Below are positions 3,295 through 48,024 of a DNA stretch of 64,000 bases, one piece after another. The stretch is from Candidatus Latescibacterota bacterium (GTDB lineage Bacteria; Latescibacterota; UBA2968; GCA-2709665): contig OZ241917.1 in NCBI GenBank assembly GCA_965203805.1, positions 1,472,001 through 1,536,000 on the forward strand. The letters run 5' to 3'. Every line of letters starts with the position of its first letter. The stretch's first letter is position 1. The position numbers were made by a program, and so were the translations under genes. Below the pieces are notes generated by a model. The model did no database searches and was not told where the DNA came from. It worked only from the letters and a program-made list of their open reading frames with translations.

Positions 3295-3475
3295 CGGATC
3301 GTACCCGCCCGCTATCAGTCCGTTGAAAAAGTCGCTCTGCAGGTGAGGCCGAGTCATTGCGGCCGAAGACAAGGCGCGCGACCGACGCGAATCCCTGGAT
3401 TCGGGGAGGGAGCGCAACGCCGTCATTCGGTCACAAGGGCCGGACGTAGCCCGGATGGACTTTTTCAACGGGCTG

Positions 3476-5119
3476 TTAAGGAGAACTCTCCTCATTCAAG
3501 AGACTGCGCTCTTCTTCAAAGTCGTACAGCGTCTGGCGTTTCAAGTCGGCCACCGCGAGTTGATATTGGATGTAGGCATCCAAATAGGCCTGGCGGGATT
3601 GCGTAAGGTCGTCCCGGGTTCGCGTGAGATCCTGCGCGGTAATATCCCCGTTTTCGAATCTCGCCAGGTCGATCTCGTAACTGCGCAACGCAACATCTTC
3701 GCTTTTTCTGAGTACCTGGAGCCTGTCGCGAGCTTCGCGAAGCCTCGCTATCGCACTTCGAATCTGTAGCACGACCTGCACGCGCTCGTCTTCCAGGTCC
3801 AGCATGCGCTGGTCCAGCCGCGTCTGCGCCGATGAAACTCTCGCTCTATTCTGGCGGGAATCCCACAGTGGGACCCGTAGCGTGAACGCCATGCCCAGGT
3901 TACGCGGGCGGCGCCGAAGGTCATTCCAACTGGCGTCGATCAGGTCCGACGTAGACGTGTCTTCAGGCAGGGCATTGGTCAACCCTGTCCGCTCGTACGA
4001 GGCGGAGAATTCACCTCGGACAGATCCGGCTGCTCGGGTCTCCCGGAGGTTGATCTCGGCCAGGCGATGGTCAATCTCGCGCTGCCGAAGTGACGCACTG
4101 TGGCGCAGCCCGTGCGAAATCGCAAGGTCTTCGTCGATCTCAAAGATCTTCAGATTCAGTGAGGGGCGAACGGTCACACTGTCGTCCAGAGACAGGCCAA
4201 GCGCCAGTCTGAGCCGGTCAGCGTTGCGCTTCATGCGGCCATCTGCCTGGAGAAGCTGATTTCGGCTTCGTGAGAGCGCCACTTCCATCTGAAGCGCTTC
4301 CACCTCGGGGATCAGCCCGGCCTCGAATTTTTTCTGTGCGAGGTCATAAGACTGCTTTTGCTGTTCGAGGGCTTCCCGGGCAATTTCAAGGCGACGTTGA
4401 GCGCTGTAGAATTCGTAGAATGCCTGTGTGATATCGTAGATTATGTCGAGTTGGGTGCTGGTGAAGACTCGCTGCTGATTTTCCAGCCGCAACCGGGCGC
4501 GTTCCAGATTGAGCTTAAGCTGGTTTGGCGCAAACAGCGGCTGCCGAAAGCGAACATCGAGCGTGCTGAAAAAGCGCTTGCTGCGATCGGAAAGATCGAG
4601 CTGTTCCTGAAATACCGATTCCCGAAGTTGCCGGAAATTGGACCCGAATGTCAACTCCCCATCTGTCATCAGAAACGGCTGACTGACGGAAACGGCCCCG
4701 AACCATTGGAGCATTCCTATTTTGTTGTAGATGGGCAGCCGATTGGGCACACGAATGGCCTGCACGTTTTCCACGTAATCGGGCGCTTGCAAAGTAAGAT
4801 TCACACGAGCCCGTGTGCTGCGTTTCGCAGCGTCCATTTCGAATCCGGCGCCTTGAAGGTCCAGCCGAAGATGTCGCGCGCGATAACCGTCGTCCAGGGC
4901 CAGCGAAATGGCTTCGTCCAGAGTCAGATCAAGCGTCCGTGCCTGGGCGAGAGAAATCAGCTGGGCGAAGATTGTCAGAATTATCGTAATGAGGCACATA
5001 GGATTCCCCAAATTTCGCATGGTTTCCATTCGAAACGCGCTATTCAGGAGCTCCGCGCCGGCACCGGAATCGCCGGTGGCGAGATGATCGCGGGACAAAG
5101 TCGAACCTGGATGGACCAT
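3476..5119 (-). CDS. TolC-family outer membrane efflux protein (start may be downstream, ~5020)
   Basis: [34 protein letters not shown] repeats; context in the export operon. Confidence 0.85.
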
Positions 5120-20408: not shown

Positions 20409-20478
20409 CGGCTATCCTGTTTTCCATCGCTTCGGATCCGGCCGGAAACGAACCCGTCGCGGCGCGACGAGGGCAGGA

Positions 20479-20544
20479 CCTGCCTGCAGCGCCTGTCTGC
20501 GTGCGTGCCACACGCACAGGCAGGCAGGGCACTGCGCAGGCAGG
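20479..20544. repeat. nested CCTGCCTG..CAGGCAGG hairpin elements
   Basis: Outer element 20479-20544 is interrupted by a 33-nt inner element at 20492-20524. Confidence 0.85.
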
Positions 20545-20591
20545 TGCCATCGCTCCCAGGGAAAGAGGGGAGACGGGAGACGACCGGCCCC

Positions 20592-32026: not shown

Positions 32027-32078
32027 CCTGCCTGCAGCGCAGGGGCACTGCGCAGGCAGGCGTATTCGCGCAGGCAGG
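32027..32078. repeat. CCTGCCTG..CAGGCAGG hairpin (34 nt) followed by the right arm of another copy
   Basis: cctgcctg-cagcgc-aggg-gcactg-cg-caggcagg, then cgtattcg-cg-caggcagg. Confidence 0.85.
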
Positions 32079-39206: not shown

Positions 39207-40709
39207 GATTACATCTCAGCCTGCCTTGCAAAGCTGACTCTCGTATAACGGGGTTGGCGATACCACAACGAGAGCGGGAGGTGCGCGACAGGGCTACGAC
39301 CGAACGAGCGGAGCCGGTGCACGCCGTTTTGTCAGAAGTTTCTCAGGATGGCACAGCCGACATTTTTTGGCGACGGCGCAGGAAGCGCTGTCACCTTGAT
39401 TGTCCTCTCACCAATAACGAGAATCTACCCGATTTGTACACCCGCCGTCAATTAAATACGCGACTGGCATAGAGTGCGGAAAAGAGATGCTGCAATTGGA
39501 ATCCAGTAAACGGAGATTGGGATATCCGACGGATTAGCTACTTCTGGCTCTCGATCCGCGATCAAAAATGGACGAATTCACAACGGGAAGTTTTACTCTC
39601 GATTACCTTTGGACTTTCTTGGAGGACGCTGCAGATTGTTCGGCTCTACGCGTTCGATTATCGGATCTTGGCTTGTGGTTCGGTTAGCGTCACGATCCCT
39701 CTTGTGCCGTCCACCTCAACTTGGCAACCGTCGACGAACATCTCTAAAATCGAAGGGACGACGTTTACTACAGGCACGCCGCACTCCCGTGCAATCTGGC
39801 TGATATGATTCATCCACATATCCGGGGCGTCCGGTACGATGAGGCCACGCACCCGCAGCAGCACAGAGAACAGAAGCGGCACATGCCAGTTGGTCGATTG
39901 GATCGGCTTCACGAGAACCACCACGTCCCCACTACCAGCGACGTCGTCTCCTTCTTCCAGTGTCTCGATTCGGCGTACGATACCCGTGGTGCGGCCTGGA
40001 CCTGCAGGGCGTCCTCTTATCGCGCTCCCAGCATCTTTTTCGGCTGCATCTGCGTCGGCAGCAACGCGGGTTTTCGGCGAGGATTCTTCCTCCGGTGGCC
40101 TTCCAATGAAGGCCGGCGCAACAAGGCGGTTGGAGTGTTCGTATTCAAGACGCCGTTTCTGCAACAGCCGTCGTCCTGTCGCGATGTCGCCTGTCGCGCC
40201 CATAACTTTCAAATCGTCCACGGTGAAGTACAAGACGTCGTCTATGTCATCGATCAGGCCGGCAGCCAGCAGCACGCCCTGCAAGCTTCGGAAGAGACGC
40301 TTTAACCTCCTGGTCGGAACGTCCGACCGGAGAACACGATGATTCAAAGCCGGTCCCCAGAAAAGAGCCCAGTCGTGAAGCCGCTCAAAACGCGCCAATT
40401 CGGTACGTTGCGAAGCCAAAGTCTCGCGGACCACGGTCACAACTAGCTCGCGCCGCCGGGTTGTCTGTCCTAAAATCCGGCCCACGGATGGGGCTCCTTT
40501 GATTGCATTTCGAACAAGCCTCAGGATATCACACGTGGGGTCGCGGAGAATTTCACAAGGAAACCCGAACTTCCACGGCGGCACCAGGCAAAAGCGCTCG
40601 CAGAAGTCTTCAAGTGCGGCAGCAAACGGGACTTGCATCTCTTTTTTTTGCATGGCACCGATAAACTCGTCCATACTTAGACTCTCGAATCGCTCGCGTT
40701 CTGATTCAA

Positions 40710-42019
40710 GGAAGCTCTGATTAAGTTACCTATTGGCACGCCATGCAGAAAGTCGTAGAATTGGAGCGTGAGCCGTCGTGTTGTGATTTCTGATGGATCG
40801 ACATAGAACGAGGGGCCCAGGGATGAAACAAATGAGTTTTTCGGATCTGGCGTACAGGACGAAGAAGAAGCAGACGCGCAGGGAACGTTTTCTGAAAGAG
40901 ATGGATGCGGTGTTGCCGTGGGAGATACTGCTTAAATCGATTGAGAGGAAGTATCCGAAACCTGGCAACGGTCGCCTGCCTGCCGAGTCGGCGCAGGCAG
41001 GTCGTCCGATCGGTGCGGAGGTGATGCTGCGTATCTACTTTATGCAACAATGGTATGGATTGAGCGATCCGGGAATGGAAGACAGTCTCTACGACGTGGA
41101 GTCGATGCGTCCCTGCCTGCTGCAGGCAGGGCTTTGCGGGTGTGAACATCAACGGCGTACCTGATGAGACGACGATCTGCAAATTCCGTCACTTTCTGGA
41201 GCACCATGGGTTGACGGAAGCGTTGTTTCGGCAAACGAAGCGCTACTTGTCCAGGCGGGGATTGATCGTGAACGAAGGCACGATCGTGGATGCCACGATC
41301 ATTCACGCGCCTTCTTCGACGAAGAACAAGGATCGGAAACGGGATCCTGAAATGGCCAGCACGAAGAAGGGCAACACGTGGCATTTCGGCATGAAGGCGC
41401 ACGTGGGCGCGGATGTGAAGGGACGGGTGCACAGTGTGGTGACCACCCCCGCTTCGGTGCATGATTCGCAGGCGATGGATGCCTGTCTGCACGGAAAAGA
41501 AAAGACCATCTACGGCGACAAGGCCTATGCGGATCAGACGCGAAAAGAACGGGCCGAAGCCAACGACGTGGAATGGCGAGTGCTTCGCAAGGCCCGCCGG
41601 GGCAAGCGGCTCAACTGCGCGGATGTTTCGTTCAACAAGAAGAGCAATCGCACGCGCGCACGGGTCCCTGCCTGTGCGTGCTGTCTCACGCACGCAGACA
41701 GGGAACATCCCTTTGGGATCATCAAACACCTGTGGGGCTACCGAAAGGTCAGGTATCGCGGTCTGGCGAAGAATACGGCGCATCTGTTCACCTTGTTTGC
41801 CTTGGCTAACTTCCATATGGCACGTCAGGAACTGGCTACTACATAGGCACCCGTGCCTCCAATTCGGACGCTGGCGGCCAAAATGGCCGGCACCGAGCGC
41901 ATCCGGGGCCGGAATCACCCGTGCAAACCCGAAAGATGACGACCCTCTCAACATAAACAGCCTCCGAAACGACCCATAAGTTACAACTTGCTCATTCCCT
42001 CTGGTTGATCAGAGGTTCC
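40710..42019 (+). mobile_element. IS5-family insertion sequence (1310 bp) with 4-bp TSD TCAA
   Basis: TIRs GGAAGCTCTGATTAA / GGAACCTCTGATCAA; TCAA at 40706-40709 and 42020-42023. Confidence 0.95.
40823..41846 (+). pseudogene. IS5 transposase disrupted by three hairpin insertions (27, 19, 36 nt)
   Basis: TRRERFL, PDETTI..FRH, IVDATII, WHFGMKAH, YGDKAY, EHPF, KVRYRGL. Removing the 82 inserted nt gives an intact 313-aa ORF. Confidence 0.93.
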
Positions 42020-43830
42020 TCAAGCAGTTTCGCCATCTTCTCCGCTTCTGCCATCAATACGTGGGGCAAATAGGGATCCAACGCGGGGTGATGGCCAAGC
42101 GTCAGGTCGTTGACATCGACATTGGGCGTATGTTTGTCCACAAAGTCATTCAACAGGTTCCGGCAGTGATGGGCCAGAAACTGAGAAGGTCCCGAAGTGT
42201 CACCGAGGAGGCTCCACGCCTCCTCCCGTACCCACAGGATTGCGTCAATTGCTCGTTCTAGCGTTCTTTCCTCGTTCTCCAGGCGGACTGCCTTTGTTTC
42301 TACAGCGGTAATCCTCGTGTTCATGCTGTGCAAGAGTTCGGACCGCATTTGAGGTTCGTATTCGACGAGATACTGTTCCAGCTCTTCGGGAGGCATATGT
42401 GGCCATGGGTCTTTTCCCTGAACCAGATAGCGATGTCCGTGAAAGTCCATCTCGGCAACGTACTTTCGGTGGCAAGGCGTCTTGACGGGTCCCACCTCAA
42501 GTGAGCGACTGTACCTCTCTGTAATCAGCTTATCACGGTAGAACGGCAGGGTTACCGTCACATCATCCCTTTTGAATGGGAAATTCCATTTCTTGGGGGA
42601 CCGCCACGTCATATCCGCCAAGTGCGGTGGCAGGTGATGTGGAAAGAAGGCCGGCATTGCCGTGATTGGCCTTACCTGTACGACGTAGATGCTTTCCCCT
42701 ACGACCACCCACTCAACGTCGACACGTGTATCAAAGACCCGGTCGATCTGCAGACCTACCTGAGCGATTTGTCTCGCAATATGGTCGCTCAGTGACGGTT
42801 CGCGCTGCTGATCTGAAGGGATGTCAATATTGTCAATGCCGCTGACACCCGGGATCAAGGCGTTTTTCTTCGTCGAAATGTCTCGACCCATGATATCTCC
42901 CGTATTCCATTCAAACAGGAAACGGTCAACTGGAATTTGGCCGGTAGACGTCATCAGATCGCGAGCCAGACCGAAGGACGACTCCAAAACGAACCGCCAC
43001 GGATTTCCCGTCAGTGGGTCTGCGGTGAACAGTACGCCGGCGCTATCGGCTGGTAGGAGTGACTGAACGAGGACGGCCATAGCGTCCGGCTCAGGCTCAA
43101 TGCCCATTTTCCGTTCGTATTCGAGTGCGAGTGGCACCCAGGCAGCACACCAGCACTTTTTAATCGCATGCAGAAGTTCATCGAGCGCTCGGATGCCAAG
43201 GAAACTCTCATAAACGCCCGCAAAGCTCGCACGGACCGAGTCCTCGTTATTGGTTGAAGAACGCACGGCCAATCCATAGGGAGCATTTGCAAATAGCCCT
43301 TCGGCAAACGGCGCAATCGCGTCGATTAAGGGTCGTGGGAATGAAGCTGCCAGTAGTCTTGGTAGAAATGCCTGATAATTCACAACACGTGCAGAATGTG
43401 TCAGACCCCTGGAACACTGAATGAGTCTTCGTACATGATTAGAAAGGTCGGATCGTGCAAGAAACAGGTTAAGTGCGTTCCGGGTGATTATAAATCCTGG
43501 AGGCACGTGGAATCCGTGTTCAATGGTCTTGCCAAGATTTGCCGATTTTGCGCCGACTAAGGAAGATTTCAGCCCAGGTTGAAGTTGGATGACCAGCTTA
43601 CCCGAATGAGAATTTCGAGGCATATTTTCGCACCGTTCCTTTCCACCGCCCTGACACAAAAAAGGATGCGCACAGGACGACATAATCGTGAGGTAAGTTT
43701 ATCTCACGGGTTATATCAGCCTATCCGCACCCTTGAGATCATCAAAAGTGCTATGGACGGCAGGATTTTATTGTTGGTGTAATATAGGAAAAACGCCCCG
43801 GCACGTCAAATGTAGTACAGGGCGTTGTTA

Positions 43831-46177: not shown

Positions 46178-48024
46178 GAGTCCACTCCGAAAAGTCGCAT
46201 TTACTTAACCAGGAAAAAGTACTAAATTCGAGGTGTAAACAGGTTGCACTGATTCAGACTGATGTTTGAACACAAAGCAGCGAGGGACCTATGTTTAGAA
46301 GGAGTGCTCCTTCAAGTGCGCCGGATCTGTTTAGCAGTATTGAGTCGCATTTCACAGGTCGGAAGCGGAACCGTCTAAATGATCCGTTGTGCTGGCATAA
46401 TCTGTTTTACGAGCACATCACGTCAAAGGTGGATGAGGATAACTTCCGTGAGGTGTATGCCCCTGGCGTAGGGCGTCCCAATGCGCCGATTCGTCAGTTG
46501 GTGTCGATGATGATCATCAAGGAGGGTTTTGGGTGGAGCGATGCCCAACTTTTCGATCAATGTCGGTTCAACATCCTGGTGATGGGGGCATTGGGGTTGG
46601 TGAATCTTACGGATGAAGTGCCTGTCGAGTCCACGTATTATCTGTTCAAGCAGGCGTTGTATGCGTATCACCTGAAGACCGGTCGCGATCTGATCGGCGA
46701 GACCTTTGTCAGGGTAACAAAGACGCAGGCCAAGGCCTTTGGTGTGTTGGGTCAGCAAATTCGAATGGACAGCCTGCCTGCGCCGAGTTCTGTTCGGCAG
46801 GCAGGTAAGTTGATCGGCTCGAACATTGCGCTTTGTTGTCGGTTGCAGTTGGTGGTGGGTTGCGTACAAGGGTTCTGGAGGTCGTTGGACAAGGCCCAAA
46901 AGGGACGATCATCGGCAACGGATCAGCAGGTTTTGGAGGCTCTGATCCAGGGGAAGCCCCATCAGGTTGTCTACCGTCTCACCAGCGCTGAAAAAGGCGA
47001 GAAGCTACAGGAATTGGGGCTGTTGTTGAGCAGGCTACAAGCGACCTATACCGAGAAAGACAGCGACCAGTACGATCTGATCGTGCGTGTTTTTGGGGAC
47101 CACTATACGGTTTCATCTTCCCCCAAGGAGGTGCTGCCCAAGCCGCATGAAGCGATCTGTTCATCCTCGTTGCAGTCTGCCCATGATGAAGAGGCGGCCT
47201 TTCGTAAGAAAGGGAAGGACAAGGTGAAAGGGTATAGTGTCAACCTCACCGAGACCTGTGATGAGGAGGGCCTCAATTTGATCACGGACGTTGACGTCAA
47301 ACCCGCGACGCGTCCCGACAATGCGTTTGTCCAAGGCGCCATACAGCGGACGCAACAGGTGGTGGACGACGTCGTCGAAGTGTCAATGGATGGGGCCTAT
47401 CATGATCGATCCAACGCCGAGTATGCCGACGAAAACAACAAGCAATTCTATTACAGTGGCCTGCAAGGAAAGCCAGGGCGTTTCAGCTATGAACGCACAA
47501 CAGACGGTGTCAAGGTCACCGATCAACAAACCGGAGAGGTTCACATCGCCCAAGAATACAAACCGGGAAAATACAAAATCACCATCGATGGCAAACCCCG
47601 ATACTTTAAGGAACAACATATCGACAGTTACCTCAATCGCAAACAGATTGAAGCCCTGCCTGACCCCATCAGAAACCGACGCAATAACGTCGAAGCCAGC
47701 ATCTTTCAGTTGAGCTATTACACCAAGGATGGCAAGACGCGCTATCGCGGAGAAAGGCCACACCAACGGTGGGCCTGGTGTCGTGGCCTATGGATCAATC
47801 TGGTTCGGATCAAGAACTACCTCGCTACACCCCCGATGCTCACCGCATAAGTGGGGCTTTCTTGCAAAAAACTCCATACCATAGGCCCTGAGCACCTTCG
47901 TAGCTTGCCCCAAAGTCGATATGCCGCACCTACAACGTTTTATCGTCCACACACGCTAAATCACAATACCCAACCTTGACCACTTGCACCAGACTCTGAT
48001 AACCCCCGTTTTCGGAGGGGACTC
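46178..48024 (+). mobile_element. insertion sequence (IS1182/ISNCY-like DDE), 1847 bp, 6-bp TSD AATCTT
   Basis: 16-bp TIRs GAGTCCACTCCGAAAA / GAGTCCCCTCCGAAAA; AATCTT at 46172-46177 and 48025-48030. Confidence 0.9.
46291..47850 (+). CDS. DDE transposase with an in-frame 33-nt hairpin insertion at the first catalytic Asp motif
   Basis: GRPNAP..W.D, RMDS[LPAPSSVRQAG]KLIGSNI, DGAY, R.RNNVEASI, KTRYRG. Confidence 0.85.
   Translation: MFRRSAPSSAPDLFSSIESHFTGRKRNRLNDPLCWHNLFYEHITSKVDEDNFREVYAPGVGRPNAPIRQLVSMMIIKEGFGWSDAQLFDQCRFNILVMGALGLVNLTDEVPVESTYYLFKQALYAYHLKTGRDLIGETFVRVTKTQAKAFGVLGQQIRMDSLPAPSSVRQAGKLIGSNIALCCRLQLVVGCVQGFWRSLDKAQKGRSSATDQQVLEALIQGKPHQVVYRLTSAEKGEKLQELGLLLSRLQATYTEKDSDQYDLIVRVFGDHYTVSSSPKEVLPKPHEAICSSSLQSAHDEEAAFRKKGKDKVKGYSVNLTETCDEEGLNLITDVDVKPATRPDNAFVQGAIQRTQQVVDDVVEVSMDGAYHDRSNAEYADENNKQFYYSGLQGKPGRFSYERTTDGVKVTDQQTGEVHIAQEYKPGKYKITIDGKPRYFKEQHIDSYLNRKQIEALPDPIRNRRNNVEASIFQLSYYTKDGKTRYRGERPHQRWAWCRGLWINLVRIKNYLATPPMLTA

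Follow-up and report, generated by a model that had tools for sequence, protein, structure and literature searches.

How three small hairpins came to lie in one transposase gene, and whether such genes are what these hairpins seek, is the question raised by a 64,000-nucleotide stretch of a Candidatus Latescibacterota genome (GenBank assembly GCA_965203805.1, contig OZ241917.1, forward-strand positions 1,472,001 to 1,536,000), referred to below as the window. The gene belongs to an IS5-family insertion sequence (IS), and a preliminary description of the locus had taken the hairpins for a non-autonomous family of micro-elements that accumulates in transposases and disables them. Our analysis makes it likely that they belong to a mobile family of nano-elements resembling repetitive extragenic palindromes (REPs), which lands in IS genes chiefly through tolerance. 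In the mechanism we propose, hairpins would settle in IS transposase genes, that of the window IS5 included, mainly since insertions are tolerated there; those inside an IS would be copied passively as the IS moves; and an enzyme provided in trans would move the hairpins, acting on a folded single strand.

The inserts, of 27, 19 and 36 nt, lie in the window sequence exactly where the preliminary description had placed them (Table 1), and their DNA folding z-scores range from -2.5 to -2.8. In the window sequence hairpin 3 directly precedes the E of the R(3)E(6)K motif, a residue that the preliminary description regards as the last of the DDE catalytic residues. The window IS was aligned with eleven homologous loci from other genomes, one of which (L017) was unaligned at the sites and was not counted. 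Exact gaps of 27, 19 and 36 nt, with no duplicated flank, were found in nine of the other ten homologues (L001, L002, L004, L009, L014, L015, L039, L008 and L016), and the locus of the congener G002 is identical to L001; the tenth homologue, L003, lacks inserts 1 and 2 and carries the identical 36-mer at site 3. The metagenome runs that contain the IS carry coral or sponge labels. A 1286-nt contig of the same IS from a coral-metagenome DNA run (X4), with 9 substitutions, lacks all three inserts, and the IS of a sponge-metagenome run (X5) lacks inserts 1 and 3 and has insert 2 in a contig that is 100% identical to the window over 465 nt. These empty sites bear out the earlier claim that the inserts produced no target-site duplication (TSD). 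Deletion of the hairpins in silico gives an open reading frame (ORF) of 324 aa from an upstream ATG, or 313 aa from MKQ, and the intact L001 homologue (323 aa) also measures 313 aa from MKQ, in agreement with the prediction that deletion restores a clean 313-aa IS5 transposase.

The hairpins are members of a large family in the source genome (G000; 5,865,457 bp in one contig, 59% GC). All members are self-complementary, with a fixed 8-bp foot, CCTG(C/T)CTG paired with CAG(G/A)CAGG, enclosing a variable inner stem-loop; the inverted repeats of 8 bp at the ends match perfectly, and the two feet do not differ from each other and are symmetric (CCTGYCTG / CAGRCAGG). The pattern of the two feet matches the window 7 times, with 0.01 matches expected from shuffles, and the genome 277 times, the overlapping matches merging into 231 loci; a few of the matches are chance non-hairpins (e.g. 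those at 1693540 and 3455127). In an unbiased genome scan for hairpins with 9-bp stems the family ranked first, and its folding z-scores span -2.5 to -4.4. Single units measure 19–37 nt, with length peaks at 33, 31, 30 and 27 nt, and nested composites reach 66 nt; the inner sequence sets many subfamilies, which are 97–100% conserved across genera. The architecture that had been described as fixed is so only with respect to the 8-bp foot: the CG bulge, scored as CG just inside one foot and followed by an inner stem of 3 bp or more, was present in 107 of the 277 matches and is a frequent feature rather than a constant one. The 19-mer, by contrast, is indeed a minimal core, since it was inserted independently at 3 distinct sites. 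The 36-mer of hairpin 3 occurs at 3 further loci of the genome, all with unrelated flanks, and in many copies in relatives.

Mobility was assessed by searching each locus, with 200-bp flanks, against the genome using BLAST. This gave 341 alignments of filled and empty paralogues in which an exact gap replaces the hairpin and no TSD is present; in every case examined the insert begins with the first C of CCTG and ends with the last G of CAGG, with nothing duplicated. A single-copy, orthologous example is the 66-nt composite of the window, whose surrounding palindrome is uninterrupted at the corresponding site of the congener G001. Target statistics were compiled from 129 events that remained after de-duplication by flanks: G stands at -1 in 72% and C at +1 in 74%, and the junction is G^C in 78 of the 129, compared with about 9% expected. 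GTC^G forms a minor target class. It contains the repeat in which a 31-mer subfamily is carried, and each of the three IS5 sites allows this reading as well, site 1 when its junction is moved by the permitted 1 nt. Nesting in family members is common and takes place at fixed positions (one 30-mer, for example, is preceded by CCTGCCTGCG in 10 of its 11 copies), and insertion at the feet or loops of other palindromes is recurrent. Two candidate explanations were rejected along the way, namely a serine-recombinase-style model with a GC crossover, which C^G sites, two of the three IS5 sites among them, do not fit, and copying of the inner sequence from the local flanks as a template, which is contradicted by identical units at unrelated loci and in other genomes. 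Two separate observations may be added. A conserved motif, TTATCCTGTNCATCCTG^TCCATCCATGT, serves as the insertion site of two different hairpin subfamilies at several loci that are unrelated in other respects (e.g. 1559991, 1568509, 3107980, 5145375 and 5769666). In the IS copy at 1369844-1369876, compared with that at 434584-434735, the ~100 nt separating a 33-mer site from a 19-mer site are missing, and the flanks outside both sites are joined by a single hairpin, as would result from recombination between two hairpins.

The family is lineage-restricted. When a strict form of the pattern was counted in 31 relatives, with the reversed pattern as a control, the highest numbers were 190 (G001), 180 (G000), 140 (G015), 132 (G016) and 75 (G011), all others having 0–34; thirteen genomes had none, and the control gave 0–1 matches per genome and 0 in G000. 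Copy number is patchy even within one genus, ranging from 0 to 190 matches among 15 congeners, and in a search of 168 genomes of the phylum at least 10 copies were found solely in one family (f1) and in one genome of another (f2). This patchiness, together with the filled and empty paralogues and the empty G001 orthologue, supports the part of the preliminary description that saw here a non-autonomous micro-element family moving without a TSD.

Short, GC-rich imperfect palindromes of high copy number, mostly extragenic, divided into several subfamilies and folding as hairpin-bulge-hairpin, the elements resemble REPs, bacterial interspersed mosaic elements (BIMEs) and REP doublets forming hairpins (REPINs). 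REPs are presented, in the passages cited, as palindromes of 20–40 nt, usually with a GTAG or CGTC tag, often of hairpin-bulge-hairpin form and mostly extragenic, each family being tied to a REP-associated tyrosine transposase (RAYT) that it flanks (PMC3733652, PMC6006769, PMC3116915, PMC8266576); two of these sources also mention occasional REPs inside genes, tnpA-REP genes included (PMC3733652, PMC6006769). Passages of one source state that recognition by the enzyme depends on the bulge and the foot and that the mechanism of REP dissemination is still poorly understood (PMC8266576), and, in the relevant passages of the REPIN work, excision is reported for doublets only (PMC3116915). The present family has single hairpins as the inserted unit in filled/empty pairs, and its composites are nested rather than inverted doublets. 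IS200/IS605 elements, which transpose as single strands ('peel and paste'), move without a TSD, have exact ends formed by hairpins, and excise precisely, restoring the donor site. The hairpin family shares the exact ends and the lack of a TSD with them and with their miniature derivatives, the palindrome-associated transposable elements (PATEs), but it consists of one symmetric hairpin with a symmetric G^C target, whereas IS200/IS605 elements enter on the 3' side of a fixed tetra- or pentanucleotide of one strand and have two different end hairpins. Background on IS200/IS605 is also found in passages of PMC6006769 and PMC8266576. Among the publications covered by our literature search, none gave an account of small hairpins in Latescibacterota or of hairpins accumulating in IS transposases. 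The small dispersed repeats (SDRs) of heterocyst-forming cyanobacteria, reportedly described by Elhai et al. in 2008, are mobile units of ~20–30 nt for which both other repeats and copies of their own kind serve as insertion targets. SDRs are closest to the hairpin family in size; they come from a different phylum and have different sequences. Rickettsia palindromic elements (RPEs) are several-fold longer than the units of the hairpin family. They are described in a passage of one source as palindromic repeats inside ORFs, often in frame (PMC3733652). Unlike RPEs, which reside in functional host genes, the hairpins inserted in coding sequences (CDSs) are concentrated in transposases, frameshifting units included.

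The host of the three hairpins has the features expected of an IS5-family element: its transposase carries an N-terminal DUF772 and a DDE_Tnp_1 domain (Pfam) and scores 236 bits against NCBIfam transpos_IS5_4 (cut-off 140), and terminal inverted repeats and a short TSD are present. The genome contains 5 copies of this triple-hairpin IS, each of 1310 bp and 99.9–100% identical, at five separate sites with duplications of their own (tcaa, ttga, ttaa, gtac, and tcat or ctcat); the 4-bp TSD is clear at four of them and ambiguous, 4 or 5 bp, at the fifth. All three hairpin sites are occupied in all five copies (15/15), and no copy with a partial set was found in this genome. Either the inserts did not stop the spread of the IS, or they entered its copies after the spread. 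In the first history a broken copy would have been mobilised in trans by an intact copy since lost, or by way of some bypass; in the second, copies already in place would have acquired the hairpins from one another, through gene conversion or through site-specific re-insertion. With regard to a bypass, frame B is open from ~41061 and the stop of frame A lies at 41162, and owing to this overlap around hairpin 2 a +1 shift in the hairpin region would join the two transposase pieces; a CUU_U slippery site follows the AGGCAGGG arm of hairpin 2. It is only a possibility that the frameshifting 19-mer is bypassed in expression, leaving the five copies self-mobile. As regards mobilisation in trans of hairpin-bearing copies, a plausible precedent is provided by one of two DDE_Tnp_1_4 families (family A) of the genome, in which four hairpin-free copies with identical alignment statistics stand beside four diverged copies bearing hairpins of 21, 19, 33 and 21 nt, nested as if gained stepwise while the lineage kept producing copies. 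IS elements can evidently carry hairpins as passengers, 3 insertion events having become 15 loci, and broken-looking IS copies can still multiply, which matters for the annotation of transposase pseudogenes in symbiont genomes.

At the hairpin 3 site the element has come or gone more than once. A tree of IS copies, built without the partial or divergent L118 and L119, places the window copy together with L115 and L003 (support 1.0), apart from L116, L001 and L117. L115 is filled with hairpin 3; L118, which shares 95.8% identity with L115 and 86.8% with the window copy, is empty there, and so is the near-identical X4 contig, 9 differences away from the filled window copy. Such mixed states in close relatives require, in whatever order, no fewer than two precise events at a single nucleotide position: the same 36-mer either entered twice or was exactly excised twice. 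In the window sequence this site has no direct repeats at its flanks through which slippage could have deleted the insert. The window and L115 show 0 differences within the 36 nt of the insert and 5 in 50 flanking nt, but this identity says nothing about the age of the insertion, given that the 36-mer is 97–100% identical among its standalone copies in five other genomes. We see an outside chance that the bare hairpin of 19–36 nt is a complete mobile unit, precise in both directions, that returns to the same site in separate IS lineages; if true, it would act on transposase genes as a switch that can be reversed, or exploit them as a homing parasite.

These events lend themselves to a first alternative, in which the hairpins are site-specific, reversible elements that invaded the IS copies after transposition, by homing or gene conversion, and whose precise excision can restore the gene. 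The X5 metagenome IS, with hairpin 2 and without hairpins 1 and 3, would fit it, as would the common GTC^G reading of the three IS5 sites, the recurrence of different subfamilies at the same target motifs, and the 15 filled sites of the five copies. However, a burst from one master copy explains five identical copies equally well, partial sets are missing from the genome, and the unrelated flanks of the other three 36-mers do not suggest a site-specific element. Excision, moreover, was not directly seen: in contigs from two RNA and two DNA runs hairpin 3 is absent from the RNA, yet the DNA of the same sample (X4) is already empty at the site, so the RNA contigs are uninformative on splicing. 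We regard this alternative as unlikely.

The genomic location of the hairpins bears on the second alternative, that they actively target transposase genes, as an anti-IS device or as obligate hyperparasites disabling the IS, which is essentially what the preliminary description had put forward. Genes were called with our own dicodon gene finder on the hairpin-deleted genome, giving 4164 genes and a coding density of 82%. Predicted CDSs contain 62 of the 231 loci (45 genes in 34 clusters), compared with 82% of random positions, and 169 loci (~73%) lie outside them, where 18% of the genome is found. Twenty representative loci, comprising 19 host ORFs and one RAYT gene (L099), were scanned with Pfam and NCBIfam; the CDS hosts are mainly transposases, namely IS5, two DDE_Tnp_1_4 families, IS21-like, IS1182-like and two IS630-like ORFs. 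In most non-IS hosts (DnaE, an OEP protein, DUF169, a HAD hydrolase, a GFO oxidoreductase, an APH-like protein and an AP_endonuc_2 protein) the hairpin lies upstream of the first domain match and is therefore probably 5' intergenic; clear internal, in-frame cases outside IS genes are a DUF1156 methylase and an unnamed 563-aa ORF. Altogether 15–17 independent insertion sites are spread over six transposase families confirmed by Pfam or NCBIfam, against very few inside other genes, and 3–4 more lie in a six-copy ORF without a family match. Within the window the reported fourth intragenic copy does sit in a transposase ORF, of IS1182-like type, and the two remaining loci appear intergenic, in line with the statement that non-transposase CDSs of the window are free of copies.

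Expressed as density, repeats of at least 1 kb outside one special region hold 33 loci in 116 kb (0.285 per kb), single-copy non-coding DNA 96 loci in 963 kb (0.10 per kb), and single-copy CDS 29 loci in 4.69 Mb (0.006 per kb). Overall the distribution is REP-like; IS DNA shows a modest excess, which tolerance can accommodate. The figure for repeats is itself inflated, because 15 of the 33 loci stem from the window IS counted five times. IS-like repeats have about 3-fold the density of single-copy non-coding DNA, and tolerance rather than targeting, the outcome that by the preliminary description's own criterion would refute it, was not rejected. For active targeting one can point to the 106 of 231 loci within the repeated 3.5% of the genome, to the many independent sites in six transposase families, to a hairpin 2 that breaks the frame and a hairpin 3 placed directly before the E of R(3)E(6)K, and to the same 36-mer at the same site in two IS lineages. 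Much of the excess in repeated DNA, however, consists of short non-IS repeats, 57 of the 74 repeats of at least 1 kb have no hairpin at all, and nearly three quarters of the loci are outside predicted CDSs; in addition, the triple-hairpin IS reached 5 copies, and DDE_Tnp_1_4 family A shows nested gains on copies at different loci. For the claim that the hairpins target and disable transposases there is no support other than a modest and confounded enrichment, and we hold it to be rather improbable.

For the preferred reading, in which REP-like elements enter IS genes chiefly through tolerance, a mover is needed, and a HUH/Y1 (RAYT-like) nuclease-ligase is tentatively our first choice of type, held at somewhat less than even confidence. 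A number of observations weigh against the reading as a whole. No cognate enzyme came to light: among the matches to Y1_Tnp, the RAYT genes, the IS200-like loci, and the GIY-YIG and Phage_integrase matches, none was seen flanked by the hairpins. RAYT L099 and its orthologues in G001, G008, G011 and G013 (76–92% identity) are flanked on both sides by CGAGGGCA-N3/4-TGCCCTCG palindromes instead; the genomes G015 and G016, rich in hairpins, have no close orthologue of it; and the IS200-like gene of G015 has different end hairpins. Unlike REPs, the family shows no GT[AG]G or CGTC tag (the flank logo of the 129 events contains only G at -1 and C at +1) and has identical feet, and its symmetric G^C target departs from the one-sided target rule of HUH enzymes. 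The hint of single-strand transfer, an association between bulge orientation and local GC skew (Fisher p=0.036, 61 non-repeat elements), is weak and is lost when replichores are set by the skew extremes (p=0.60). A tblastn search of the genome with the intact L001 transposase returned only the five copies, and hence no intact paralogue to act in trans. Finally, the ~3-fold density of IS-like repeats leaves room for a true IS preference, and the division into CDS and non-CDS depends on a crude gene finder. Given that there is neither a GTAG tag nor a REPtron, the family may depend on an enzyme or a rule not yet described.

The enzyme search itself covered several protein types. Across 31 genomes, Y1_Tnp gave two RAYT-like matches in G000, which has no IS200-type TnpA. 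One is the single-copy gene L099 (203 aa, 4533506-4534114; NCBIfam REP_Tyr_transpos 104 bits, cut-off 80). The second is a complete, in-frame RAYT-like HUH domain (residues ~250–445) within the 1252-aa ORF at G000:C1:4546926-4550681, which also contains DUF1156 and a D12-type methylase motif; a 27-nt hairpin of the CCTG family lies just upstream of the HUH domain. Y1_Tnp also matches long ORFs of a similar kind in G008, G011 and G016. Around the five L099 orthologues a CCTG hairpin is found near one only, the G000 gene. The linked HUH/TnpA-REP or GIY-YIG gene for which the preliminary description had proposed a search was not recovered, and the family differs from REPs in having no REPtron, the RAYT of this genome being flanked by another palindrome family. 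That REPtron, at G000:C1:4532990-4534700, has pairs of CGAGGGCA-N4-TGCCCTCG palindromes ~120 nt apart on both sides of the RAYT gene, an arrangement conserved in four congeners, and a copy of its palindrome lies at window positions 20468-20552. The two GIY-YIG matches are UvrC and a 629-aa ORF identified by its GIY-YIG match alone; among three matches to Phage_integrase, a scan of one showed it to be XerC/D-like.

A third REP-like family, (GA)GGGTGGGG-CAGACATTCCTGTCTG-CC with a GTGG tag, has 32 copies in G000 (e.g. at 540516 and 4003258). Its palindrome, a canonical-looking REP (GTGGGG-CAGACATTCCTGTCTG-CC), flanks as GGCAGACATTCCTGTCTGCC the RAYT-like paralogues L105 and L106 of G016, which share a common frame break; G000 has no RAYT-like gene of this type despite its 32 palindromes. 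In about 10 of the 32 a CCTG hairpin sits exactly between tag and stem (GGTGGGG^CAGACA), and the two halves of the palindrome, CCTGTCTGCC and GGCAGACAGG, are the ends of many hairpins, an 'inside-out' relation which suggests, as far as sequence comparison goes, that the two families are related.

Without a dedicated transposase, hairpins might still be moved by the host, and in this third alternative structure-specific nucleases and ligase would excise extruded hairpins and join them into nicks, for example at replication forks. Such a process would agree with a unit that always begins and ends at the outermost paired bases of the foot, with insertions favouring loops and feet of other palindromes, and with the failure of the searches to find a cognate enzyme. 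The range of 0–190 copies among congeners that share the core machinery nevertheless fits a dispensable, lineage-specific factor better, and 97–100% subfamily conservation across genera suggests specific recognition; no precedent for this mechanism is known to us, and we think it quite improbable. Less probable by far is that the hairpins are miniature inverted-repeat transposable elements (MITEs) of a DDE-type IS, mobilised by a cut-and-paste transposase recognising CCTGCCTG inverted ends. The perfect terminal 8-bp inverted repeats and the many DDE transposases of the genome are in keeping with it, but no filled/empty pair examined has a TSD, and a scan for autonomous partners, i.e. CCTGYCTG...CAGRCAGG pairs 120–6000 bp apart with extended inverted repeats, yielded five long-range pairs, none of which is a transposon, so that no longer element with these ends encodes a transposase. 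By our own reading of the translation, the only clean pair among them, of 2.1 kb, brackets an ORF that reads like a Gfo/Idh/MocA oxidoreductase. Lastly, an assembly artefact, or peptides native to the transposase lineage, can practically be dismissed, as the same elements recur in the independent assemblies G001, G007, G015 and G016 and in unrelated metagenome contigs (hairpin 2 among them, in the 465-nt match), and nine of ten aligned homologues lack all three inserts.

The family offers unusually clean natural evidence on how REP-like sequences spread, comprising single units as small as 19 nt as inserts, exact empty sites among paralogues, orthologues and metagenome sequences, a measurable G^C preference, nesting rules and a site of recurrent precise events. 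The features of the window are collected in Table 1.

Table 1 Features of the window that concern the IS5-family element and the hairpin family (coordinates are window positions).
Feature	Coordinates	Strand	Remarks
IS5-family insertion sequence, 1310 bp	40710..42019	+	left inverted repeat (IRL) GGAAGCTCTGATTAAG, right inverted repeat (IRR) ...GATCAGAGGTTCC
TSD of the IS5 element, left copy	40706..40709	.	TCAA, 4 bp
TSD of the IS5 element, right copy	42020..42023	.	TCAA, 4 bp
Transposase, N-terminal piece	40823..41164	+	frame A; DUF772; spans hairpins 1 and 2; stop at 41162-41164
Transposase, C-terminal piece	41142..41846	+	frame B = A+1; DDE_Tnp_1; includes hairpin 3
Hairpin 1, 27 nt	40975..41001	+	in frame; 8-bp foot, CG bulge on the 3' side, inner stem CCG/CGG; site GGTCG^TCGTCC
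Hairpin 2, 19 nt	41112..41130	+	minimal unit (8-bp foot, 3-nt loop); +1 frameshift; site GCGTC^GCTTTG
Hairpin 3, 36 nt	41667..41702	+	in frame; site GGGTC^GAACA, between V and E of RVEHPF
Family hairpin, 33 nt	46773..46805	+	in frame, inside IS1182-like transposase ORF (46270-47847)
Composite of the family, 66 nt	20479..20544	+	33-mer (20492-20524) nested in another 33-mer; in the loop of a CGAGGGCAGGA^TGCC.TCG palindrome
Family hairpin, 34 nt	32027..32060	+	apparently intergenic; orthologous G001 locus is a rearranged version

Several further features of the genome were recorded. A 235-kb stretch, G000:C1:3240000-3475000, contains 57 of the 231 hairpin loci together with core genes (xerC/D-like, uvrC and hisG/D/C); most of these loci are a single 31-mer subfamily inside a longer repeat (GCAGACCTCTCCCC^GACCCTCTCC...), the orientation of which flips at ~3.337 Mb, a position that is not a GC-skew extreme. 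The cumulative GC skew of G000 is flat between ~2.6 and 4.4 Mb, and the genome, though a single contig, is listed at 99.8% completeness and 9.3% contamination. Another repeat family, of ~165 bp (...ACGGCGTTGC^GCTCCCTCCCC...; 70–82% identity), is present at window positions 3316-3479 (G000:C1:1475316-1475479) and at ~20 other sites, and several of its copies hold a 33-nt hairpin at the same internal site.

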